Of a stretch of 64,000 nt of DNA, positions 12,001-64,000 are shown piece after piece. The DNA lies in contig CM082596.2 of NCBI GenBank assembly GCA_040954595.2, forward strand, positions 8,383,124 through 8,447,123. The letters run 5' to 3'. The position numbers and the translations under genes are program-made. The notes below the pieces were generated by a model, which worked only from the letters and a program-made list of their open reading frames with translations, did not search any database and was not told the DNA's origin. This DNA is from Balanoglossus misakiensis. Its lineage: Eukaryota; Animalia; Hemichordata. Every line of letters begins with the position of its first letter. The first letter of the stretch is position 1.

Positions 12001-12073
12001 TATCCAATGGGTTCATCAAGATGACAACCCTAGAACCCAGCAACCAAATATCTTAAATGCTCTCTTCGAACAG

Positions 12074-12334
12074 GCATCACCATCGAATACGAGTCGGGCC
12101 CGGTAAGCTACACACTGGCCTGTGACATTACAGATGGCGCCACCTCGGTGCAGCCAGTGGTCACTGTCAACATTGACCCAGTAAACGAACACATCCCAAC
12201 GTTCATGCCAGCAGCGTGGACTGTGTCCCACGGCGAGAATACCGCAGTCGGTTCTCTCATCGTGGACGCCTCGTCGAACGTGGCTGACGATGATGATCCA
12301 CCTCATGCAATCACCGCTTATTCTTTGAATTCAG
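12074..12334 (+). other. Isolated cadherin-repeat exon (nested gene exon or captured gene fragment) inside kinase intron 4
   Basis: gaacag|GC...TCA G|gtataa, 261 nt, stop-free, phase 1/1. Encodes ITIEYESGPVSYTLACDITDGATSVQPVVTVNIDPVNEHIPTFMPAAWTVSHGENTAVGSLIVDASSNVADDDDPPHAITAYSLNS. Cadherin motifs: IEYE (LDYE), PVNEHIPTF (DxNDNxPxF), ENTAVGS, ADDD. Confidence 0.8.
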
Positions 12335-15300
12335 GTATAATATTCAACTGTTCATCATGTTTCGTCATATACGAGCCATACAACATACACGCTTGCTTCC
12401 CTCAGTTTGGTTGCTGAACTTCATCATGCAAGAATACCACTCACTGCAGTAGTTGCCTCAGTTTTGTCTGACATCAACACAACAACTACCAAAACAGAAC
12501 AATCGGTATACAGAGTACAGTTTCTATCTGACACAAAAGAATACTAGTATGCTACCAATAAGACATCAAATCAGGTCCGATAAACCAATATCATTCAAAG
12601 AAAGCTAATTACCAGGTCCAAGACAGAAATAAGAGAAAAAATGACAATTTCATCAAATCAGGCGTAACCACAGATTTTACTACGACCTATTTTGTCAAAG
12701 TTGTCTTCGTGAAACTTCGCTCGCTGTTCGAACATCACAGAAACGTTGTGATTTCATCACATGTTACTCAGCTCATCGTGGTTTTGAGGGCAATTTCTAC
12801 GATCGATAAAGCATTCAGAGAGACAATGGGGTTGCAATGAATGGAAACGACTGTCGATTTCTTGCCACGCACGCACATATTAACCGCGCTTTATTGTAAA
12901 TCATAATGACATTTTATATTCCCTTGTCTGGCCGGGTGTGGTGTTCAATGCCACGAGAAACGCCATCGTTGAATGAGTCATTAAATAGAGTTTCCAATGG
13001 CCACGGTCCATCAAGCGACTATTAGAAAACTGACTGTAGGCCGGTCATTAACAATGATGGAGGTGTCCTATTCTACTTAACAACAGCAACAGTTACAGCT
13101 TTATTAGCTGTAACTTTTTTAGCTGTGTTTTAAGTATTTTTGTTTTGTGTATCTACTGCAGTTTCTTGTTGTTTCTGAATCATGACGAAATGCCCAACAT
13201 TTAGCTTATCAACACAACATATATGTGTATGGTCAGCATTATTTTTGTGCAAAATTTGTCCGGACTAGAATTTATTTGTCAACAATAACAACGGTCGTTA
13301 CACATATACAGGCTTTGTTGACAAGCAGTATACTGGGTATATTAGCATGTTGTTCGGAGTAGAACACAAAATCGCATTTTATTATACACGGAACAAAAAT
13401 ACTGAAGATACAGCCAAATGTTACAGCTGATACTGTCAACCAGGTACTATTTTCTCAGAATGCTGTTGCTCTTTTCTTGAGGTCACTCCCTTGCATGAGA
13501 AGTGGACGTGAGTAGCCCCTTCATTGTCAAGTGCTTCAAGAGCAACACTTGTGATGATCAACCCACTGCATTGCCAATTCTGTTACAGGCTGCCACTATT
13601 TCTTCAACTGCCTTGGACAACCAGAGAAAAAACATGCAATTTTCCATATTATCAAACATATACTGCTGTAACTTATTGAGTCCTGTCATACAATACGTTT
13701 CTGTATGTGTACAGTATGCTGATTCACCAATCACGTCATGTGCACACGTCATGTGTACACGTACAGATGTACTGAGTGACTGAAGCATTCTATATTTGGC
13801 TAGATCAGCCTAGATGCCAAAAAGTTGTATTAATTTTGTAACAATTTCATTCAGTTCTCCTCTGCATTGATTTCATGGTGGAAGGCATTATTATCAATAT
13901 TTATAATAGCATAATCATAAGGTTATACACAAAATATCGCCATGTTTGGACTTGAGCTTCATACACGAGGAATTGGACTTGTGTACGACTGGTCCATGGG
14001 GCCTTCATCCGCATTTTGTGAATATCCCTATATCATTGGTACTTAAGACATCTAAGTATGTATGCCAGATATTTAACACAATAATTTAACCTTTATTTCT
14101 TTAATACCAGGTAGGATACCAGGATTTACCAATACAATCACAGTTCTGGATACAATGGTAAAGAGTCCAAGACATACTGCCACAACACTGGATACACCAA
14201 TGCTGGGGGAAAAACCCACTGTATGGCATTGCATATCATAGCATAGTCTAGTAACCAGCCATGTTTTAAAACACGCTAGACACTAGGCTAGATATACCAT
14301 AGAAGGATGCCAAGACAAACTGATGCAGCACGCTTGATTATCTTTTTACAACGTGTTGACTTTTTTCCAAAGATTGCTCAATCATTATGAATGTACACAA
14401 AAAGTCATTCACACTTTTGGATTACAACTAATACGTAAAATACAGGATTGCGGTTTTTGCCTGTCTATAGAAGTCCACTACCGCCAGCCATGCAATACAC
14501 TTTCATTCAATTTGTCAAGTGCTAATGTAGGGCCCAATGGTTGATCAGAAATGTCATTGTTCAATCAATAATTTAGTTATCACAAAAAAACTTTTTTTCA
14601 TAAAAAGAACTTAGGAAGTATGCACCTGAAGTTATTCTGATAATTAGAACTTGTGTCAGAAGTACTGAGTTCTTGATGTATCAACTGCAATCATGCACTT
14701 ACAATAGGGGACTTTCGAGTTGGGGAGTTCTCGCATCCCTGCAGTTGGCGCACTTGTGTACCTCATGATTGACATACGGTGGGACAACCCCAAAAGTTGC
14801 GCCATTGAATTAAACAATGGCAATGCACTTACAATTCTGCCTGCCTTAATAGGTTTTGACTTTGTGCTAGGGGGTCAAATCACATTACAATAATTGCATT
14901 CTGGGTAAGAAGTTGACAACTCTCTTTAGTAAGAGATAGAAGAAATGATATGTTTACTGTATTGCATGACTTCCTTTGGTCAAACATGTCGGTTTTTGTA
15001 GTCAGCATATTAAAATATTTCATGAGCAATGTTAAGTAGACTTAAATTTTGTCCCTTCTTACCAAATCTGTTGTCTTTTCCCAATCTCCGAAACAGACTA
15101 TGGTGGCCACTGTCGTGACTGTTGTTATCACAGCACACTGCCTTATGGCATTGACTGTATACAATTTTTGTAACCAGAGTCTCTGGTTTGACTCATGCAT
15201 GCACATAAGACGATCCTCCTTTAACATTTCTACAAGTTCAATCTACTACATTTTCACAGAAGCAATGTAAATTTAGACAAATATGTCACTGTTTTTCGCA

Positions 15301-20463: not shown

Positions 20464-23400
20464 ACAGACAAGTAATATCACTTGCCAATGAATTATTCTA
20501 AAGCTGAGGATTATGTTTGTTTCAGTAATCATAAAGGTACACACACACAAAAGTACCCATTAGGAAATTAAGTAGCTGACAAGGAAATGTATCAAAATCG
20601 GGTTGGCTGGTCATTGACTAATAAATGGCTTTACTTTCACCCTTGACCTAATCACAACACCTACTGGAAAATCCGGGAATTCACACCCAAGGATGACCAG
20701 ACTGTCTTTCCAGAACTGAAGGATATTCCAGTACAAATTTATTCTTACAGATTTTTTGACACTCGATTAGGGAAAACATGGCCCATTTCATTTGGTTATT
20801 TTGACAAGGAAAGAGGGATATTGCTACTGTTCACAGATAAAAAAAAAAAAATTCAAATTGGGAAGACACTTGGATTTTCTGAACTTCAATAGTATCCTAC
20901 TTTGTACTGCAATATAGATTTTAAAATTGTCACCACTGAAATCATTGTTTGATTTTGCTAAAACAAATAAATAAAAGACAAAAAGTGATAATTGTGAAAT
21001 TATGAAAGAGTAATGATGCTGTTTGGGAGAGGGAGAGCTGGATGATGTTATATACAGAGGAGGGATTCTAACTCTGCATGCTCAGAATAACAGTTTTTAA
21101 GTGTCATAATTTAGCATCATCTAAAAACATGCTCATCACAGCTTATTTTCTCAGTACTGAAATCTAAAAGTTGCTCAAGTGCAGTCGTTTTTACTCAGTA
21201 CAACTTTGCTGTCAAATTTGTACTGTGCATGGACCCAAAATAAAAATCCACAAGCACACCACTCTTATTTAGAAGCAGAACTCTTCTGGATTTTCTTGGC
21301 CTTTAATACTGAAACGTCCCCACCCAAATTCTCAGCACAGAATCTCCATTGTCAAATGACTTTGATTCAAGTGAGGAAAAAAAATTCCAGTGATGAAAAC
21401 AGAATAATAATTCCAAGGTAGTTATTTATATTTAGTGAATTGCCAGAGGGCTGGCAAACGTGAGCTTCAGTCATTACTTGGCAATGAAAATGAACAAGAT
21501 ATCGCCATCCCTCATGTTAACTCTTTTGGACAACTAATTATTTTAATCTTTCTTGAGCTACACACACTAATTTGAATAAAAATCTTCCTAATTTTTTCGG
21601 CTGGCTATTTTTCTACCCCGTGAAGCATGGGCGTCTGCCCTGAGCAGAGACAACGACATAACGGCCAGTTACGTGATGGCAAGTCATGTGACCAAAATTA
21701 TGACCAATTGTGGGTATCACTTGGAGCTAGTCCATTCATAAAAAGTACAATGGTGGTAGAGTGAGTGTCACACTTAATTTAACCACTAAATCACGCAGGA
21801 TACAAAGTAGTGACTCTGGATCATCTTTTGTTGGACGCTAGTCGCACAGGTAGTTTTTTGGCCCCGTTCACAGGTGGTATCCACTGCCATATATCTTTCT
21901 CTGCTCTTGTCAAACCAGTTGTATCATGAGAGAAACACATCACACATGGTCTGGACAAAAAAAAAAATTGCCCTCCATACACAAACTGACCGCACGGAAA
22001 CACGGAATTAACAATAATGCTGGATCGGGACTGGATGAAGAAGATGCCATTTGGAAGGAAGCGCAAAGAAGATGAATGGGACAACTGTGGGTGAGTGAAA
22101 ATGCCTAAGTAAGAGACTGCTATATGCGCGCACAGAGAATCTCAAGGTCGCATACAATACACAGTTGTACAAACTCAGCATTATAAATGATCTGTCAGGA
22201 GTCAATTCATCAATGTCAGCACTTCACTAAAGACATACTTCTGGGCTTTGATTTACGCCGTGGTCGCTAAGTCAATCAAATATGGACACCAAAAATCTGT
22301 CAAGACATCATGTCTGACTTACATAACATTGTGAATTTTTTTTGCGGGAGATTAAAGTCAGTGTAAACTTCCAGGTTGGAAATGGAAAAAGCTGTTCAGA
22401 GGCTATTGTCCATTTCTGAAATAATCTCCATTTTTTTTTACATGACTGTTCATTTTTATTTGATGCAATCAACTTCTATTGCATGTCTAAATAGTAAATG
22501 CGAACTATAAAAAATATGTCATGGGGCCCGGACATGTGACATAGAATTAAAAATAAAATGAAGATAAAAACGGAACCTCGTAACTGGTACCAGACCAAAC
22601 ATCAATCTCAAAACTAACGAATTTCACTTGTTTGTGTTTTTTGTTATGAAAATGAGTTTTTTCCTTCAAAATATGTAGGTCAAGAAAGCAATTACTGTAG
22701 GCAATACATAACGCTTTATACGACGTGAAAAAATCAAGTTACGTAACGTTAAGGATGAAAGAAGAAGTGATCTGCCATCTGGCTATGGTAATTAATTATT
22801 GGATTTAAGTACAAAGAATACTCATGGAAAGCAGAAACAAATTCATGACCTTTTTAATTTTTATCCAACTTTTCTACTAAATGGCTCAAACATGATGACA
22901 CTTTAAACATCATTAAATCATATTGTATTCTGCAGGCGACCATATTTTAAATCTTATAAACGACAATCTCACAAATTACATCTTGTCAATAAAATCAGCA
23001 AAATACATGTAAAACACTGACATCTCACATGTAGGGCAAGACACCAATTTTCTTTCCAGTTTTCAATGTCACAACACAAACACGGTCGACTGGAGCAGTC
23101 ACAGCCACACAAACCCATGTCAAACACCCAGAGGCCTCAATAAACTACATCTCTGTACTGGAATAACTGTTTTCCAGATTAATTATACACTTAGATTATT
23201 CCAAATGTAATGTGATTTGATTATGTTGATGTAGTACCTCATTTAAAATGGAAAATATGGAAGGAAATGATGACATTCGTTGAATAATCACAGAAATTGC
23301 AAAAATTATTAACACGGCTACAACAGTTCCATTCAGTGGACTGATCAAACATTTGGGCGAATGAAATGCATGGCCAGGTTCGGTGTCCTTGAATACGGAA

Positions 23401-23540
23401 ATATTTGCTAATATCCAGGAAACCATTGCAACTCTAGTCACACTGCTAATACCCAATGCAAACATACACACACATATGCTGAGTACTTCCTGGTTCAACG
23501 ACCTCCAGAAACTTGACCAACACGGGTACATATACATTAC

Positions 23541-23639
23541 CTTGTTATCATCCTTCCACCTGGTGAACACCTGTGTCAGCAGCTTGTACTGCAGCAACTC
23601 AAAGACAATGCAGAAATGGCCGTCAAACGTGAAGATATT
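23541..23639 (-). CDS. CMGC-group protein kinase exon 4 (subdomain V, hinge)
   Basis: ttccag|AAT...AAG|gtaatg, 99 nt. Encodes NIFTFDGHFCIVFELLQYKLLTQVFTRWKDDNK; H.CIVFELL is typical of DYRK/CLK kinases. Confidence 0.92.
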
Positions 23640-24022
23640 CTGGAAAAGGAGAACCAAATGGAAACTAGATCAGGGCAGCAATCATTATATTAGAAACATT
23701 AGGTTCACCTGCAGCAATGTGAACGTGGGTCTTACTCTTAAATCACAAAGGTGTAATTAGCGGGGAAATCTGTCATCATTGCTGTTGCTCTGTGGTTATT
23801 GGTGGCGGCCTTGACGACTTTCAAGGCTACGGCAGGCCACCAAAGGTCAATACAATACATGGGAAGTCGACTCCACTGCCGCTGGCACATGGACAAAGAT
23901 ATATGGAAGTTGTAATAGATGATTAAGTAGCCCTGTCATGCCCTGCAAACTGTTGGAAATAATGCCTTACCACCATCTTGGGGCCACACAGACACGCACA
24001 TGGATTTGGGACACGAGTTTAA

Positions 24023-52124: not shown

Positions 52125-52698
52125 ATGAGTGAAGACCGAAGTGAAGTCATTGATGAACTCAGTATATTAGAAAGGAGTGAGTCGCCATCGAGCAAGCCCG
52201 CTTTGAGAGTCGAGTTTCAGATCGGTCCCGACCAGGAGCTGTGCAGCAACACCACCACCACCAGCGACAGCACAATGCAGCAGAGCCACCAAGAATTGGT
52301 CAGTATTGCCGAGCATCCGACGGATCCCAGCCAATCCAGCTCTTCACATTCCATGGGCGAGAGCGCTTTCCAGCTGCACGTGGTCACCTCGGCGCCGGTC
52401 CCCATTCCGGGGTCGGCGTCGTCGTCGAGTCGCGCCGGACCCCCTTTTGCCATTCAGACCTCGCCCGTCTACAGTTCACCGCAGTCTTTCATGATCCGCC
52501 AGAGTGTGTCGGCGCCGGCCCTGCCCTGCTATTTCTGCGGCAGCAGCCCCAAAGTGTGCCACACTGCGTCCACGCAGACCACGGCCCAGTCGGCCATGAT
52601 GGACCACAGACAACAAGCGGCAGCGGACAGTGAGGACAGTGACAGTGGTGACGAGAGCGACGATGACACCATCGAAGAAGTGCCACTCTATCTCCCCG
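52125..52698 (+). CDS. BH3-only protein (BIM/BAD-like), first coding exon: disordered Ser/Pro-rich region, LC8-binding TQT motif, acidic tract
   Basis: Acceptor ctccatcag|52110, ATG at 52125, GC-rich open frame of 191 codons, donor CCC G|gtaagt (phase 1). Contains GPPFAIQTSP...FMIRQS...CYF...SPKVCHTASTQT, collinear with BimEL as recalled. Confidence 0.85.
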
Positions 52699-55600
52699 GT
52701 AAGTCGATCCCGTCCTGTCAATATTTAAAACACAACATCTACATAACACAGTGTCAGTAACGGTCGCTTTTTTCGTATTAACTGTATTAAACTTTGTGAC
52801 ACTGGTTGAATTGTTTGTTATTTTGGAGTTAACCGTTTTCTGTGAAAATGACGTTCCAGTCCAACATCTATAGATCTCCACACATGACTTTGATTGTGTA
52901 TAATATAGAAAGTTGTCGTCTGCCTTAAACAGTGAGAGAAATATCGTCACTAATATGGGCAGCAGAGTGTGCCCCCTAAGCCAATATGACCAACCACTGA
53001 CTCGACAAACTCACTGGTGACTCAAGAAAAGTATCCACAAAACAATACATGCAAATGTACAGGGTTGACTCAGAGAAATTTCTAGAAATCCTCAAATTGG
53101 CCCAAAGCTTTCGAAAATTATATTTGTTAGAGGGCACACTGGGCATTATTGTCATTGGCTTGAGTGTGGTGTACATGTATCTTAACCAGAACAGATTTTT
53201 GTCTTGTAACCATTTAGGGTATATAGTCAGATTGGTTTACAATAGTTTGTTTTTCCCAGTCAGATGTTTCACCTGTGTTGTATTTTATTGTGACATTAAA
53301 TGCAATTGTTTGCTTTCATTCAGCGCATATAGCGTCTTAGACCTGACAAAAAGTGTTCAATTGATTGATGACACGTACCTGAGGGATGTTCAAAAGAACA
53401 GACAAAACGATTTACATGCCCTTGAACTAGGATGAAGTAAGTCACGGCCAAAAGTGCTACATATTGCCTCATTTTGGCCAGCTATCTGTGAAACTACCAT
53501 ACACGCTATGTCAAAGGTGAATGGAAAAAATCAATATGGCTTAGGTTTATTGATTGGGGTAGTAACAATGCACAGCCTTGAAGGAAAGACTTGACCCACG
53601 CAGCTGTGGTGATGGTCAAAAATCAATACATGGATAGAACATTGCCAGAGCTAAAAAACCATCATCAAGTATACGGCCATGGCCCTGTACAAACTCAAAT
53701 CCCCTGAGGACCTTGTGCCTTTCTGGACTCTGTCCCAATATCTAACACCAAGCCAATATATACAAGTTCTCATCACAATCTATTTCCTTGATAATCTGTA
53801 ATTTAAAAAAAAACCAGACATTCAATGAAACCTATCCTTTTGTGTGATCAATCTAAACCAATACAGAACCAACTATGGTAGATTTTTTTAAAAACTGTCC
53901 AAATCACATTTTCATCTATGAAATGATTGAAATAGTTAATACACTTTGGTCATGGTGTTGCCATCTGGTCGATTAAACAGCAAAATCTTCTGAGATTGAC
54001 AAATTCTTCAGAGGACAATTTGTACTCAGGAATGAGAGTAAGGTCAAAAATAGTTCAAGGTTACGGTTAAATAATTATGGATGACACTGTCAGTTGTAAT
54101 AATTGACATTTTGAGTGCTGAGAACCTCAACATCAACTAGAACCTAGCCCAAATAATCGTCTATTATTTGGTCTGTTGATCAAATAGTTGTCTTTGTGTT
54201 TTAACAGTGGGGTGAAATATAGTGTCCAGATTGGTTGTTTTGCTTTTCAGGAACTGGTAGTGTAGTACTGAAAGATAAAAATGAAAATACAAGAACCTAA
54301 TTTTGAAATTGTTATCTTTGAAATATATGTTTAATTCTGTAAATTAAAATGTGACATGACTTCCAGTATTTAAAGAACCATATCTGAATTTGCCATCAGT
54401 CACAGACAGTCACAGATACATGATCAGAATAGATACATGTACCACAATGTATGTGAGCTCTGTCACCAAAGAATTTCCACTCTTTTTGTTAAATTTGAAT
54501 TAATTTGTACCATATCATATGTTTTGACTATATGGTCTGTCATAATTTCAAGCAAGTCAAATTCAGTGTGAGTCTGCAGTCGCGCATTTGACCTCAAAAT
54601 GTTTGAATGAAACCTGAGATGAAACATGTTGAAAACCTGAGATGAAAAATGCTCATAAATATTTGAATGTTGCGTGATATTGCCCGGTATCAATGGTGAT
54701 GGTTGCATCATTAATTTACCACAATCGGTCATCGGTACCAGTTTATCCGGGACAAAAGCAGTTTTAAGTACCAGGAAAATTGGAATTGCCTGCATCATAT
54801 GTCACAGTGACATTGACTTCAAGGTCAGGGAGTACATACATGTACCTGTTGCGATTTGAGGCCATTTTGATTTTGCTAGGAAAGCCTGTGATTGGCGCGT
54901 TTACATGTACAACACAGAAGTGTTGCTTGTGAGTACTGCATACATGTAGACTAATGTGGTGACACCGATTTGAATGGCAGTGACTCAGTCCACTGTGGTT
55001 TGAGCAGTTATGTAGGTTTTGGGTTCAAGTTCAGGTCAGACCACTGGCTGTGGCATTGACACCACTGTGGTACAGTTGGTGATGGTACATGGACCACTGA
55101 TGCCAGTGGTAGTGATACCACCCTGATAACAGTATTAACACCATATATGGTTGTACCACCATCAATGGTGTACTTTTCACTAATTCAGTTCAAAAAAAGC
55201 ATGTAGGACATTCACAGCATGACACCTGATGTGTTATCATGGCCACATTTCAGTTTGGCACCTTCTGTGGTAATACCACTGTAATAACTTTCACTGATTG
55301 TGGCAAGTACATGTACAAAGCAACAGAGTTTAGCACCTTGTAAACAGAAACGAAGTGGCCCAGCTAACAGGTGGCAATTAATTCAAGAGACTCTCTCTCT
55401 CTCCATCCAGCCAGTCTTATCAGCGGTATCAGTAAAATACACAGTGAGTGTACATGTAGTTAGTCTCTCCACCCACAGCTCTGAATAGTTCTTTGTCCTC
55501 AAAAAGTAGCGACCTTTTTTTTCGAAATGAGGGGGGCGGAATAACACACTGCCTTGTGCTTTGCAATAAATCTTGTTCAGTTGGTTTTTCAGAGGTGACT

Positions 55601-56212
55601 ACAACAACATTGCTAGTCGCGGTGGAGGAGGTGTAGTCACTTCATGACTCGGAACATTGTGATTAAGACCACAGTGTCATAGACAAGACCACATGTGAAT
55701 GAATGCATCATCACAAACACGTTGGTGCAATATATTACTCACGCCCTTTGTTTGAAAAAAGTTTTTCAATAAATTAAATAAAATTAGTAAGAGTGAATAA
55801 TCAGATGAATTTGCCAGCTTTTTAATGCGTGATAAATGTGTCAATGTTAAGGTCAGGTCATGGTGACATTGGCTAATCTGTCTGTCTAGACATGGTAATT
55901 ATGAGTGTTCTGATGGACTTCTCTGTCAAGGAGTGAGAATAAGATTCAACTGTTGAAAATTAGAGTTAACAGATATCAAACGTTAGCTGAGGTGATAATC
56001 AAGCATATTACCATAAAAAGAATTAACAGAAAATGAACACTAACATAAGCAAACTATTATACCATAAAGACAACTGAAATGCTGTTTGATAACTTTTATT
56101 GTTCATATTTTTTGCAATTTTATTATAATATAAAATTGGTATTTTTCTCAGTGTAACCTTGTCCTATAAAATTTACAGCATACAGTTGTAGTCTGTAAAG
56201 TAGTCATTGAAA

Positions 56213-57065
56213 CACGGTTACTAGAAGAAGACGGTTAGGAAACTATTTTTTCTCCATTGTTAGATGCTCGCCTCGGTAAACACTTAGTGTAAACGAAAGA
56301 TATCAGGTGCTAACGAGCCTGGCCATACGAATAAACAGACAGAATAACTGACCGCTCGGTCAAAATGACGTCATTACCCCTACAATCCAAAGCAAACCAT
56401 ACTCATGTTTACGGAATTGCTTGCAGGCACAGTACGTATACCACCAGATTTGAGGAAAACAGATCAGAGAGTGGATAATTTATAAAGTCACAGCACATTT
56501 ATGACAATTTTGAACTTTCAAGGACATGATGAAGCCATACATTCTTTGTCTTGACTGTGCCCTAGAGATTCGATGCGAACCAAAACAAACAAGATGGCCG
56601 CCAAAGGCTATATCGATAATGTTAACGACTGTATCGAAATGGGTATGCAATCTCAACGAAATATTCCAATTGGAATAAACGAAATAGCCCATGCAATACA
56701 AAAAGGTGTAAAATATCTAAATATATTTAAAAAAAACAGAAATGCGACCATCAGGGTTGAATTCTAGGGGTTCAAAATTTGACGCTATTTGAGTCCGGAC
56801 TTTTAGTTAACAACCCAAGAAACAATGGTAGAGTGTCGCAAGCCCAACAGACTATGACCGTGCACTCCATAAGCCTATATGGAACTCGTACAAAAAAAAG
56901 TGGCGCTGTACTCTGACGAAAAAGGGCAGATGAAGGGGTTCAAAAATTAACACGTTCCCCAATACAACCCCACATAGCGGTTCAGACATGTACTCTCCTA
57001 GCTAACACCTCGTTCACACCTTCCGAACAATAGAGTTTCCTAACCGTCTTCTTCTAGTAACCGTG
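56213..57065. mobile_element. Non-autonomous DNA transposon with 32-bp perfect TIRs and a 7-bp TSD (P-superfamily-like)
   Basis: TIR CACGGTTACTAGAAGAAGACGGTTAGGAAACT at both ends, direct repeat ATTGAAA at 56206-56212 and 57066-57072, no transposase ORF. Confidence 0.88.
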
Positions 57066-59572
57066 ATTGAAACAATAAATTTTTTTTCAACAAACAAATT
57101 GATAATTTATGTACAAGAATTTACAACTGTTCATTATGTTAATGAAAGTTTTAAAGAGTTTTTTTATCATCTATAGCCAAAATTTATTGAAATCTATGGC
57201 CTGTCAGATTGAATGTGATCACGCACTTATAGGCGGACACTGTTGCAAGACTCAACTGGATGACATCATTTGAGTTGTCATGGTAGCATTTCCTCATTAG
57301 CATAGTCTACCACAGCAGGATTTTGTCCTATGATGGCATAGTAAGTTCTGTGTTTATGGTTTGGATGTACAGTAATAGAGGGACTGTGTTTGGATGGATG
57401 TTGTACATGATCAGCGACTGTGAAGTACTTGCCCCTGAGTACAGTTTACTTTTTCAGTGCAACAGAGACATGCTTTTTGTTTCACTGTTTCTATGGCAGT
57501 AAATCAAATTGTGTGAATCACGCGCTTGATGACCTTGGTAATCATGACTTCACTCTTACTAACTCCAGGCACTCAGCCAACAATGTGAAGTTGCCCTCAT
57601 TAAAGTTGCCACCAGTTCAAATTTAAATAACACCAACGTCATTAGAACGATCCTTCATCGGTCACCCGCTGACATTTGACCTCTGACATTTCACCCTTGA
57701 CGTTTATCCATGAATCTTAAATAGTGGCGTACCTGGGCGCAAGCAGAGAACTGGGCAACATTTCCATGGTTACCGCTGTGCAATCATTGCGGTACACCGT
57801 ACACTTTAGCAGAAGACGTGGTGGTCAATATTAACTTGCAGTTTTTCAAAGTTCACCCCCATCCCTTGCATTGTAGGCGGTCGTGTCGATTTAGACTTTT
57901 TAAAGGTACATCACCAATACATGAATACAGAAATAACCGCACAGCTTGAAGTAAAGTGGTCATTTCACTCGGAAAGGGGTCTTCCAAAGACCATAAGTAA
58001 CAAGCTGTTTCAGTTGCCATGGCTATCTATTTTTATACTTCATAACAATTAAAAGTAAACTCATTTTTAATGTGATTGTCATACTTGTAACTGGCAGGAA
58101 TGTGACTGGTTGATTCATAGGGGAGAGAACTGAAGAGGAAGTGTTTTTTGTTCAGTATTTCTTTTCTTTTTTTGGTTCTGTGTGTCAAGAAGTTTTTTTC
58201 TGCTTACAGCACGCTTGTATGAGACAGTTGTTAACAGACAAATGATTCAACCGATTGTACACATACTGGTTTATAGGATGATAATTTTGTATATATGGGA
58301 TTTTTATCATCAGAAAAACAAGTCAATACATTAAAGTTATACAGTCACCTATGTATGGTCACAAGGGCATGTCTTAGTCTTCAAATGACTGTGTGGTGGC
58401 GCACTTTTTTTTTCGTGTGCCACCCATTGAAAATCTCTGATTGGCCATATTTGAATTTTCCATGGTAAAAGTAGCTGAATTTGCATATATATAGGTGACT
58501 GTGTACCTGTCAAAATACTAACAAGATGGCCAAGAGTTATTATAGCTTTCTTTATTGGAGATTTCAAGAAAGTAGCATTCACCAAACAGTACTGTGTGTA
58601 TGGTGGTTATGAAGAACTTGTTAAATGTTTCAGATGGAAAGGGTGTTATGATTGAATAAATTCTACAAGGATTTAAAGAAACTGGTCGAGTTGTGTTTTA
58701 TCAACAAAACTTAATTGGGTGCCAATCTGATGACCAGCTCACTCATTCTACTTTTACATTGTAGAGTTTCTGACTAATAAAGTTAAAATAATTTAACAGT
58801 GTAGTACTCTGCAGTCCTTTGAAAACAGGACAGTTTTGTTTCGACAAGAAAGGATGACTTATCAACAACAATAAAACAATATGACAAACAAGTAAAACAG
58901 CATGCAGTATTATTAAAAAAAACTAGATTTGCAGCATGCAGTGGATAGACACAGTGCCCTATTGGCATGGTCAACTTTGAAGGCCACAAATATTTCTGTG
59001 GTTTTGTAAATGTTATGTATGAGTTGCAAGCAGTGATGTATGGTTATAAAGTTTTAGCAGTTTCTCAAGTAATGACATCACATAACAACAAGTCTGCTGT
59101 GACGATTGCCTGTTCATTCTGCAACTTCAAATAAAAACGTTGTCTTTGGACATCAGTGAGTGGTTTACTGGTTACATGTAGTTGTCAAAGTGCCTTGGAG
59201 AACTACAAAATGATGAATGTTAAAAAGGGCATACGTTATAAATATGGATGTGATGTGATTGTTTTATATGTACTCTTACAATAATGTGTTTGTCTTCCAG
59301 GGATATAGTCAACAGATCAAATTGGTCTCAAATAAAAGAAAGACTGCAAAAAATAAAAGTTGTCATGTCAAAATTTGTGAAACGTCAACTTTTCATCAAA
59401 AAGTTAGAAATTAATGGATGATTTTACATCTGAGCTATGCTCTCAAAGAGATTTTTTTGAATGGCGGAATATTTGAAGACATGGTTTATCAATATTTTAG
59501 TCAGGCCTTGATACATATAGAGGTTGCAGAGTTAGAAACAGCATGTTTTTTTTCATGTTGAATTGCTTTTAA

Positions 59573-59917
59573 AGGGACAAAGTCTCTCTCATGCTGCCCA
59601 ATTTTCATTAATTTTGTTTGATGCAAGACACTGTTTATGTATGTACATGTGGATATATAGTGAATCAACGTTCATCCACACACAACTTCCATCCCACTTG
59701 TAGACACTAGAGTGAAAAACTCACCAAAATGAATAATCGGTGTTTACCATTTGTTTATTTGGGCGAGATTTTTACCCTCATATCCTACAAACGGGATGGA
59801 AGGTGTGTGTGGTTGAATGTTGATTCACAATATATCCACATGTAGAATAACATAAACGGTGTCTTGTATCAAACAAAATTAATGGAAAAAGGGCAGCAAG
59901 AGAGAGACTTTGTTCCT
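59573..59917. mobile_element. Kolobok-type MITE family A, copy 6
   Basis: TTAA|AGGGACAAAGT...ACTTTGTTCCT|TTAA. Confidence 0.85.
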
Positions 59918-59963
59918 TTAATACTGTGTAATTGACGCTGTTTCTGTGTCGTTTGGCAATTAG

Positions 59964-60163
59964 GGAATGGTAATAACCGTTGGCGATCCCGGTCTGAGTC
60001 GGACGACCCTGGCAGCCGCACTCGATGCCACCCGTTGCCGGACTTGTTGGAATTCCGCAACCGATCCCACTCGGAGCCAGCAGATATACGACCTGAGATT
60101 GAGGTTGGCCGGGAATTACGCCGGATTAGCGATGAATTCCACCTGTCTTATCAGGAATGCAGG
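59964..60163 (+). CDS. BH3-only protein (BIM/BAD-like), BH3 exon
   Basis: caattag|GG...AGG|gtcagt, 200 nt, phase 1/0, in phase with the 52698 donor. Encodes (G)NGNNRWRSRSESDDPGSRTRCHPLPDLLEFRNRSHSEPADIRPEIEVGRELRRISDEFHLSYQECR; the BH3 core L-x-x-I-S-D-E-F is at 60116-60139. The downstream terminal exon was not identified. Confidence 0.9.
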
Positions 60164-60358
60164 GTCAGTCAACAATTTATTTAAACTATATTCATAATTA
60201 TTATCATATCATATCATTTCTTGCTTTTATATCCCCTCTGATGAAGTCTTGTATGTATAAAAAAACAAAAGCAAAATGTGGTGATGTTGGTGACGGCATT
60301 GTCATTTATGTATTGCTGGGTTTGATCAATGTTCAAGTTAATTTTTGTGAGTGTTTAA

Positions 60359-60705
60359 AGGGACAATTTTGACATTATTTTGGTTATTTTATTTTCATAG
60401 GCTATTTGATGTTGTTGTCTACTCACTGAAACATGCCCGTTGACCGGTTGTCAAGGCCTCAATTCACAAGCCATGCATGGAATATCACAAATGATTACTT
60501 CCATCATTTAATTTTTGGTCTTCACCAAAAATGATTTGGCAGGCATATTCTCAGGATGGTGTTCATATACCTGATGTACAGGCTGCAGGTTGAATTGTGA
60601 CAACTGTTCATTTAGCATGTTTCAGTGAGCAGAATAAGATAAATAGCTCATCAAGTAAAATTTGAATCACCAAAAAAATGTCAAAAAATGAGCAACTTTG
60701 TCCCT
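60359..60705. mobile_element. Kolobok-type MITE family B (same termini, different interior)
   Basis: TTAA|AGGGACAA...TTGTCCCT|TTAA with internal inverted arms (ctcactgaaacatgc / gcatgtttcagtgag). Confidence 0.7.
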
Positions 60706-63700
60706 TTAACATGGTAGATTTATGGAGGCTGCTTCTTTGAACTGAACACCGTGTGACTTGACCTTATTGTTTGCAAAATATTGTAATTGAAAGGAGGGAT
60801 GTTCAAATGAAATGAGGGAGTGAAGAACAGTAACACTGCCGCAGTGTCATCGCGAGAACATGTGACAGAAGAACCAAAGCCAATCTCTGCAAAAGTGTTA
60901 TTTCATCAAAATCAGAAATTAGGTCGCTTGCTTCCTTTGTCTGCACAGCCAGTCAGCGGAAATAAGTATGACTGTGCGATCTGTTACCAAGGAAACAGAA
61001 AACAAACAAATATCTGAACACCCCCGAAGAGACAATGAACCCTGGGAAAAAACTTGTCCAATTTTTATGGATTTTTATCTGTAGATAAATGGGCTTGTGT
61101 TTGCTGTTTCAATAGGCCGTCGCATGTTTTTATGCTCACTGGCAAACCCGTCTCGAGGGAAATCATCCATATTTAACATAATGAGAAATATTATTTTGTT
61201 TTGTTTATAGTCAGATTCTATATACAGCAGAATCTCAGTTTTGTTGTATTAAGTAATAATGTTTAACAACATCAAGGTAATGGGGGAAAAACAAAGGAAA
61301 AACAACAACAGACTAATTAGATACAAATTGCCAATGTTATATCGCCTTTCTGACCACAAGTGGCAGATTGACTGAAAGTGTTCCCTGTAAAAATTCGTGG
61401 CCAATTTCATGAAAGGTAACAACCCATACACAGTTGTTAAACACTGAATTATTAGAGATAGTCATCGGATCATTATGTCACCCCACATGTGAACATCTGA
61501 AAATCTGAATTCAAAGTAAAGACAACCAATTTGGGCAGATCAAGCTTCTTAAGTCATCATATTCAAATATGAAATAATCCAATATGGGGCAGAGAGAGAA
61601 AGAGGCCGGGAGGAATTATGTAAAACTGTAAATGGAATGATGAGATGTGTCCTTCATGGCAAACTACAGCACAAGGTCACCTTAAGTCTGTTTGAGTAAC
61701 CTTGCCCGGGTGAAGCAACCACCGAGATAAATTGTGGGACCTGACTGCTGGAAAAGTGGTCCAAATTGAACACAACTTCTTATTTATTCAAAATCATGAC
61801 ACTGAGACAAACATGAAATTATGTTGCAACCTTGAAGCATTGTATTGAGTGTTTACATCAATAACATACATGCTTTTTATTTATAAGTTTTCTCAGTTTA
61901 TCATTTTAACTTAAGTTATTTCACTCTTGAGACATGTGGTTTTGATTTTCATTTGCCTGTTAATAATTTCTAGGGAATATTATCAGTACTTGTAATATTT
62001 TCAGGTGTGTGTTATTTTTGATTTCTGTTTTCTGAAATATGCAAACGTAAATAATAAGTGTCAGTATGTATGGTAACCAATGTGCCTTTGTGGATTGTGA
62101 ATGGAGGAGAGATGAATTTCTTGGTGTGTCGACTTGTGCAGAGCTGCCGTCCTAACATTGATAAAATACATTATGTTAATGAGATTGTTCAATATTAACA
62201 AGCCGTGTGGTGGTCCCTAAGTTGTCTAACCATGAACTTGACTGCACCCTGTCTATTGATTCAGATTGGACAGGGCAGAAGTTACTCACACAAGTCTGCC
62301 ATGCTTGTTCGCAACTCAGAACTGCTCGATTTTGATGCCAGTCGTTCCTGGTTCAGTTTCAAATGATTTTAAAATTTTCTTGATTTTAAATTATTACTGG
62401 TTCTCTGTATTTAAAGTAAATTTCGATAATCCTTTTGTGGAAACAGTGAAAGATACAAATGTATATTTCTGAGTTAAAGGCTTGAGTGTTTGATCGAGTG
62501 ATATTGTTTAATGTGTGGCTGTTGTTGGTAGTCTTGTTCTAATGATGTCAAGGCCAATCACCTGCCATATTGGGTTTTTCTCCACAAATTTCACAACTGT
62601 TTACCAATTTCTTTGCGTTTTTATTACAAACCACACCTTCTGTTGAAAAACACCATTGTTTGGTCCATTATTTATTTACAATTTGTTTTGTTTTTGTTTG
62701 TTGTTTTATTTTTAGATCTGGTCATGCTGATTATCATAATTTATGTGGCATGTCATGTAATGTATTGTAATGTATGACGGCTGGTTGGAGAATGGATGTG
62801 GGCATTCAAAAAATTTGTTTACTATCATCTTCGACACTATAAACACAAATATCGGGTGACATGACTGGATTGATCAAGATCTTCGCAAGATTCTGTTTCA
62901 AAAATCATTGATTTCTGAAATCTCACAGGATCTCCAGATCCGACCAAGCAACAGTAGTCTCGAACTCTGAGTAAAATCTTAAAATGACAGGAAAGTCCAG
63001 AATATGCAAATGTCAACACTCCACGCTAAAACAGATTAAAATTAAAAGATGTTTTTGAAGCCAAAGAAGATCTAATTTTATAAATGGTGGTGATTTTTTT
63101 GTATGAATTGCTGATGACTATGGGCTGATTCAGCATTTTATGCGCAGACCTTGAAATATTCTAAATGGTAAAAGAAGGTTCATTGACTGGCCTACTTAGC
63201 TTACATTGATATATTTAGATTCTGGAAACCATTACTGCAAGTTTGTGTTGACATTCTTGTTATATTTTAGCCAAGGTCACCAAAATACTTCCATATAATT
63301 TTTGTTCCAGAATTTTTTTGTTTAATATTTTACAACAGCCCATTTTAATGATTAGCAAAATTACTCAAAATTTCATTGTCAATATTTTACCAATATGATT
63401 ATAATGACATTTACATAAAGCTACATATGTACATAATATTTTAAAAACTAAAGTCGGTTTATCACATAAATGATTATATGTCCACATACATGCATCTAAC
63501 AATGGTAGTTTTTGCAGAATTTTGAATGAAAGTAATTTAGATGGTTTCTTGGAAGAAACAGTTAGCCATGATGCATAATTTTATATACATGTGTTTACAA
63601 GCAGTAATCAGATTTTGTTTGACTCAACATTGATAAATTATTTGATTTCTGGTCTGTTTTCACCAATGCCGGAATATTGCACTCTTCCGGAGTGAATTTC

Positions 63701-64000
63701 CTGAACGATTTGAACTTGATACATGAGAATATTGCCTTTATTCTTCCAGTTTCTGGAAAAATTATCGAAAGTTGAAATATTGGACTGCGTGCAAAACCTA
63801 CTGCTTTCAATTACGTGTATGTTTCTATGTTAATTGGTCCTAATATGGGTCACAGGCAGTGACATTGAATTATTAACTTTGGCCTGATCTGTCTGTCTCT
63901 GTGAATAAAGAATCAATTCCTAATCTTCATGGGGGAAATGTCCGAATGACTCCCAACATGGTATGTTTACATTTTGCCTGTGGATTCGATGTTGTTATGT

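Follow-up and report, generated by a model that had tools for sequence, protein, structure and literature searches.

A BH3-only gene of the acorn worm Balanoglossus misakiensis combines control motifs of BAD and BIM

In 64,000 nucleotides of the genome of the acorn worm Balanoglossus misakiensis (contig CM082596.2 of GCA_040954595.2, positions 8,383,124 to 8,447,123; hereafter, the window), we identified two in-frame exons of a gene for a BH3-only protein. The gene carries three serine motifs like those of BAD, its motifs are conserved over bilaterian phyla, and its similarity to vertebrate proteins is a mosaic of BAD and BIM. We propose, with a probability of roughly two in three, that it is the undivided bilaterian pro-orthologue of BIM and BAD, and that its product is likely silenced by growth-factor kinases (phosphorylation by AKT, RSK, and PKA) and by 14-3-3. 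Because relatives from starfish to mussels share this layout, the growth-factor off-switch is likely to be older than the vertebrates.

The BH3 exon is most similar to proteins from Ptychodera flava (85% identity) and Glandiceps talaboti (87% identity), and its features are listed in Table 1 together with those of the upstream exon. The upstream exon is low in complexity, acidic, and rich in serine and proline; tblastn with residues 1-180 of the Ptychodera protein (P0001) aligned to it with 51% identity (E = 1e-41). Together the two exons account for residues 1-248 of that protein without interruption, with no need for another coding exon between them, and we infer that they are spliced to each other. 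The acorn-worm homology and the two-exon match rule out a chance open reading frame or an artefact of reading through an intron. The BH3 exon ends at a splice donor, and the relatives extend for 35 more residues; an exon for these residues of the Ptychodera relative was not found in the rest of the window (60164-64000). The BH3 of BH3-only proteins is reported to lie on the second-to-last exon (PMC7022251).

Table 1. Features of the BH3-only gene, by position in the window.
Feature	Position	Strand	Evidence
Upstream coding exon	52125..52698	+	ATG at 52125; phase-1 donor GT at 52699; reading frame continues into the BH3 exon
BIM-like TQT motif, a predicted anchor for dynein light chain LC8	52572..52580	+	motif scan; profile score
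Intron (GT...AG, phase 1, 7265 nt)	52699..59963	+	residues 1-180 and 175-248 of Ptychodera P0001 covered by the two exons
BH3 exon with all three serine motifs	59964..60163	+	translation; bounds AG 59962-63 and GT 60164-65; acorn-worm homology
Site 1, overlapping RxRxxS (Ser 59993, Ser 59999), equivalent to mouse BAD S112	59978..60001	+	motif scan; aligns with RxRxxS of lizard BAD
Conserved PLPD motif	60032..60043	+	invariant in alignment A3; lizard BAD has PLPE/PLPD
Site 2, RxRxxSxP (Ser 60071), predicted AKT/S6K and mode-I 14-3-3 site, equivalent to mouse BAD S136	60056..60079	+	motif scan
BH3 motif whose small residue is Ser (AGC, 60128-60130) in an RRxS context, equivalent to mouse BAD S155	60098..60151	+	Pfam; PDB

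The predicted protein has a BH3 motif (Leu ... small residue-Asp) and no Bcl-2 fold (BH1/BH2), as expected for a BH3-only protein; Pfam finds no Bcl-2 domain in the full-length relatives P0001-P0003. The Atlas model of P0001 has a mean pLDDT of 0.46, and the acorn-worm-type protein is predicted to be largely disordered.

The three serines of the BH3 exon have their codons at 59999 (RSRSES), 60071 (RNRSHSEP), and 60128 (RRISDEF), which places them at intervals of 24 and 19 residues. A sequence-only reading of the window had pointed out these serines, an extra RxRxxS that overlaps the first (RWRSRS, Ser 59993), and an RSxSxP match; our motif scan recovered the extra RxRxxS and a single RSxSxP, at site 2. 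That reading had also stated that S112, S136, and S155 of mouse BAD are 24 and 19 residues apart, which agrees with the literature (PMC3916415), and the register that it assumed is supported by Pfam: positions 62-125 of Bcl-2_BAD align to residues 1-64 of the exon, which are equal spans. In mouse BAD, S112 is phosphorylated by RSK or PKA, S136 by AKT or S6K, and S155 by PKA or RSK (PMC3916415). Judging by the motifs, site 2 and the BH3 serine are the strongest candidates for a switch; site 1 has an acidic context and lacks the proline at +2 that is a feature of mode-I 14-3-3 sites. The stretch that separates sites 1 and 2 contains the PLPD motif, which could be an uncharacterised docking motif. 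When the 50-residue stretch that precedes the BH3 core was shuffled 200,000 times, RxRxxS/T appeared at both exact offsets with a frequency of 2e-5, and two separated RxRxxS/T sites appeared anywhere with a frequency of 0.006 (both patterns were defined post hoc).

Only three acorn-worm-type proteins (P0001-P0003) came up in word searches with single sequences. A search with the single exon led to 16 representatives, and a profile of 11 BH3-exon stretches (alignment A3) led to 87 proteins. The profile matched proteins from starfish, a brittle star, a crinoid, a sea cucumber, sea urchins, amphioxus, many molluscs, and Lingula, as well as from two nemerteans, two annelids, and one crustacean; it also matched two lizard BADs, eel BIM, and hamster BIM. 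We tabulated the window's exon with 93 proteins, dropped P0097 (which does not match the BH3 pattern), and set aside five named vertebrate rows. This left 88 relatives, which include isoforms, near-copies, and unnamed records.

All three sites are present in 65 of the 88 relatives, although the search profile itself contains the three sites, so counts among the 88 are inflated. Named examples with all three come from seven phyla: hemichordates, echinoderms, amphioxus, molluscs, a brachiopod, a nemertean, and annelids. Site 2 in its strict form (RxRxxS/TxP) is kept in 84/88, and in lizard BAD and eel BIM as well. The BH3 serine is kept in 81/88 and is glycine in the other 7. RxRxxS/T at site 1 is found in 73/88 and is missing from the acorn-worm-like P0003. 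The earlier claim that the three-serine module predates vertebrates is supported, and the module is older than was claimed, as it reaches the protostomes.

The serine motifs are conserved among the relatives, but the exact spacing, which had been put forward as the signal, is not. The 24/19 pair is found in just 2/88 relatives (the window and Ptychodera), and we rejected it as a conserved signal. The distance from site 1 to site 2 ranges from 16 to 40 residues, with 24 as the commonest single value (12/73). The distance from site 2 to the BH3 serine ranges from 17 to 25 and is 19 in 11/87; the named proteins among these 11 are all from deuterostomes. The spacing is 22/19 in Glandiceps, and 22/19 and 23/19 in the lizard BADs; zebrafish Bad is reported to lack site 1 and to have 19 residues between site 2 and the BH3 position (PMC3916415). 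Overall, the motifs are what is conserved, and 24 lies within a drifting range. The 19-residue distance is probably conserved, and it recurs in deuterostomes, BAD, and eel BIM.

The replacement of the BH3 serine by glycine, as in BIM, is seen in proteins of the sea urchin type (P0071, P0072, P0074, P0076, and P0081) and of the scallop type (P0043 and P0044), apparently as independent events. The AGC codon in the window is one transition away from a glycine codon. At least three losses of a PKA-type switch seem to have occurred.

The sequence-only reading implied that the gene is BAD. Our results do not support this: the BH3 is nearer to that of BIM, there is a TQT motif upstream, and eel BIM shares site 2 at 19 residues. 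In Pfam, the BH3 exon reaches 49.4 bits against Bclx_interact (PF08945, the BIM BH3; cut-off 25) and 31.6 bits against Bcl-2_BAD (PF10514; cut-off 28.2). Glandiceps and P0003 are below the Bcl-2_BAD cut-off. When the exon is compared to the PDB, matches 1-17 are BIM peptides and BAD is 18th. Also, the N-terminal half of the BH3 and the isoleucine before the serine are BIM-like.

A one-to-one orthologue of BAD, with BIM derived from another gene and a convergent TQT, would explain why the exon clears Pfam's BAD cut-off over equal spans and why 11/11 members of A3 match Bcl-2_BAD, versus 10/11 that match the BIM family. It would also explain why site 1, PLPD/E, and the BH3 serine are common to lizard BAD and not to BIM. 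We nevertheless consider it quite unlikely, given the higher score of the BH3 as BIM, the TQT module with its flanks, which matches only eel BIM, and the presence of site 2 in eel BIM at the 19-residue offset. The neighbours of the Ptychodera protein in the Atlas also argue against it, if only as leads: the top cluster is from arthropods (119 members, score 0.88) and is followed by PUMA, BMF, and BIM clusters, and since all of these scores are below 0.9, we treat them as leads only.

The site 2 of eel BIM was seen in two Conger proteins (P0095 and P0109), where RxRxxSxP lies 19 residues before the BH3 glycine; hamster BIM lacks it. Its presence in eel BIM implies that site 2 predates the split of BIM and BAD and is not a mark of BAD. 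Fish BIM may still be a target of AKT and 14-3-3 at the position equivalent to BAD S136.

To score the modules of the protein separately, we compared module profiles, all built without the named vertebrates, to vertebrate BAD and BIM from two species each. (The crustacean P0099 is in the training set of these profiles, so its own scores are circular.) The pre-BH3 module matches the lizard BADs at 10.4 and 9.6 bits (reached by 0/300 and 1/300 shuffles) across site 1, PLPE, and site 2, and it matches eel BIM at 7.4 bits (0/300 shuffles) by site 2 alone. The BH3 module profile scores BAD and BIM alike as matches. The TQT module gives eel BIM 22.5 bits (0/300 shuffles as high) and puts the lizard BADs at chance level (-3.4 and -2.1 bits; 148/300 and 150/300 shuffles as high). 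The hamster BIM in our set is isoform X4, in which the TQT region is missing, and its negative result for this module hence carries no information. With a TQT profile trained without acorn worms, the window's upstream exon scores 14.1 bits (0/300 shuffles as high) and eel BIM scores 21.2. As the TQT region was outside the search query, the match to BIM is independent of how the hits were found.

BIM carries DKSTQT as its dynein light chain motif and a beta-TrCP degron at Ser93/94/98 (PMC4695108). TQT is present in 55/61 relatives that have at least 120 upstream residues. In the window TQT is followed by threonine, versus proline in 51/58. A motif resembling the degron (DSG/SSGxxS/T) is present in 49/61 relatives and absent from the acorn-worm proteins. 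It lies 15 residues before TQT in echinoderms (18 in one), 23 in eel BIM, and at least 120 in lophotrochozoans; by these distances, only the echinoderm motif is BIM-like in position. The echinoderm motif is SSGYGS and that of eel BIM is SSGYFS. Bim_N (PF06773) has no match in the window's exon or in the full-length relatives P0001-P0003.

These BIM features, along with the top matches in Pfam and the PDB, raise the converse explanation: the gene could be a one-to-one orthologue of BIM, with BAD having originated separately and the basic serine motifs having evolved twice. But site 1, PLPD/E, site 2, and the BH3 serine align in order with lizard BAD, and fourfold convergence is improbable, which makes this explanation very unlikely.

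The gene resembles each vertebrate protein in part. Like BAD, it has serines whose contexts follow the order RxRxxS, RxRxxSxP, RRxS, and its site 2 precedes the BH3 serine by 19 residues; it also shares the PLPD/E motif with lizard BAD and a splice junction shortly after the BH3. (Isoform pairs suggest that in lizard BAD and eel BIM this junction follows the small residue of the BH3 by 8-10 residues, versus 11 in the window.) Unlike BAD, the protein has a long upstream exon with TQT, and its relatives have about 280 amino acids, whereas lizard BAD has 145; the N-terminal half of its BH3 is BIM-like, and the spacing of sites 1 and 2 varies among its relatives. BIM (BCL2L11) offers the best BH3 match, a TQT upstream, site 2 at the 19-residue offset (in eel), and nine residues before the BH3 that are identical in hamster BIM and the window, and the echinoderm relatives have the BIM-like SSGYxS. 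BIM differs in having glycine in place of the BH3 serine (as in the BIM peptides in the PDB); the window has site 1 and PLPD and no match to Bim_N, and acorn worms lack the degron-like motif. For BMF, a dynein light chain motif is reported, and both BMF and PUMA show weak similarity in Pfam and the Atlas, with all Pfam scores under the cut-off. A tree of the BH3-exon region (78 columns, 40 rows) did not place BAD and BIM relative to the invertebrate rows.

If the protein works as the BAD pathway does, AKT, S6K, or RSK would phosphorylate Ser 60071 and Ser 59999 or 59993, and a 14-3-3 dimer would then bind and sequester the disordered chain. Ser 60128, within the BH3, would next be phosphorylated by PKA, which would block docking in the groove of Bcl-2 or Bcl-xL. 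Dephosphorylation would free the BH3. By analogy with BIM and BMF, LC8 would bind the TQT motif. After the vertebrate duplications, TQT would have disappeared from BAD, with the three-serine module retained there; BIM would have retained TQT and the degron and changed its BH3 serine to glycine.

The ancestry could be as we propose and the serines could still serve something other than a growth-factor/14-3-3 survival switch in these animals, such as other kinases, control of stability, or a non-apoptotic role. The acidic, non-mode-I context of site 1 is consistent with this. So is the change of the BH3 serine to glycine in 7/88, which indicates that the serine is dispensable in some lineages, and BH3 motifs in general admit serine as the small residue (PMC6124574). 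However, arginine at -5 and -3, serine or threonine, and proline at +2 are kept jointly in 84/88 relatives amid a variable region, as recognition by AGC kinases and 14-3-3 predicts, and fish Bad is reported to be controlled via the same two sites (PMC3916415). We therefore consider another use of the serines unlikely.

More broadly, we lean slightly towards a protostome-deuterostome ancestor that had one BH3-only protein in which a BIM-like BH3 was joined to the three-serine/14-3-3 switch of BAD, a tether for LC8, and a degron of the beta-TrCP type. Its duplicates, vertebrate BIM and BAD and probably also BMF and PUMA, would have divided these controls among themselves. This would give a single origin to that core of the "polyphyletic" BH3-only class and make growth-factor control of apoptosis through BH3 proteins as old as bilaterians. 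Short linear motifs can arise by convergence, which is a caveat to our proposal on BIM and BAD.

BH3-only proteins are usually termed polyphyletic (PMC11463336). Suraweera et al. 2022 (PMC8998228) used human Bim, Bad, and Bmf as seeds and reported candidate BH3-only proteins from Saccoglossus, echinoderms, amphioxus, and lophotrochozoans. Their Strongylocentrotus purpuratus protein has 373 amino acids, which is the length of P0074, with the BH3 on one exon and predicted disorder. Unlike our analysis, section 2.4 and other passages of that paper deal with the BH3 region and disorder, and not with phosphosites, 14-3-3, TQT, or a BIM/BAD composite. The relevant passages of PMC7022251, PMC4715348, PMC11463336, PMC12811263, PMC6124574, and PMC3634015 likewise contain no conserved invertebrate phosphosites or BIM/BAD composite. 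So, invertebrate BH3-only candidates are already published, and we found no account of the conserved switch or of the composite in the open-licence full-text literature.

If our proposal is true, at least two vertebrate death triggers have a single origin, in one gene with the control modules of both BAD and BIM, and the AKT/14-3-3 survival switch dates to early bilaterians. There would also be a concrete apoptosis target in the eggs of starfish and sea urchins and in oysters and mussels. A question that becomes testable is whether the ancestral BH3 joined the broad binding of BIM to the phospho-off switch of BAD.

Oysters, mussels, and clams have clear members of the family (P0039, P0048, P0051, P0062, and other bivalve proteins); as of 2013, no BH3-only homologues had been detected in bivalves, according to PMC3634015. 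Venerid clams have two copies, and the tree indicates that this duplication was a bivalve event. The crustacean protein P0099, from Oratosquilla, has the same BH3 core with serine, and an RxRxxS upstream. Drosophila is reported to lack BH3-only proteins. The BH3-exon profile also hit the phage protein PHIKZ062 (PDB 9xqs chain a; E from 2e-4 to 1e-2) via a stretch with RxRxxSxP and LRRI, which we judged to be chance.

As for neighbouring genes, we compared 249 of the window's 565 stop-to-stop open reading frames of at least 45 amino acids, picked mainly by a GC content of at least 0.40, to Pfam, and none had a match above the cut-off. In the human genome, BUB1/BUB1B and PLCB2/PLCB3 paralogues probably neighbour BCL2L11, BMF, BAD, and BBC3. 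A GC-rich reading frame at 12034-12414 (+), which has no Pfam match, looks by eye like what we take to be a cadherin-repeat exon. Another at 23199-23669 (-), also with no Pfam match, has a short stretch that, judged by eye, resembles a CMGC kinase subdomain. Beyond the window, the acorn-worm and sea urchin proteins (P0001-P0003 and P0074) end in Ser-Ser-Val, which we take to be similar to a class I PDZ ligand, and the C-terminal tail of the acorn-worm proteins contains an additional RRxS motif.
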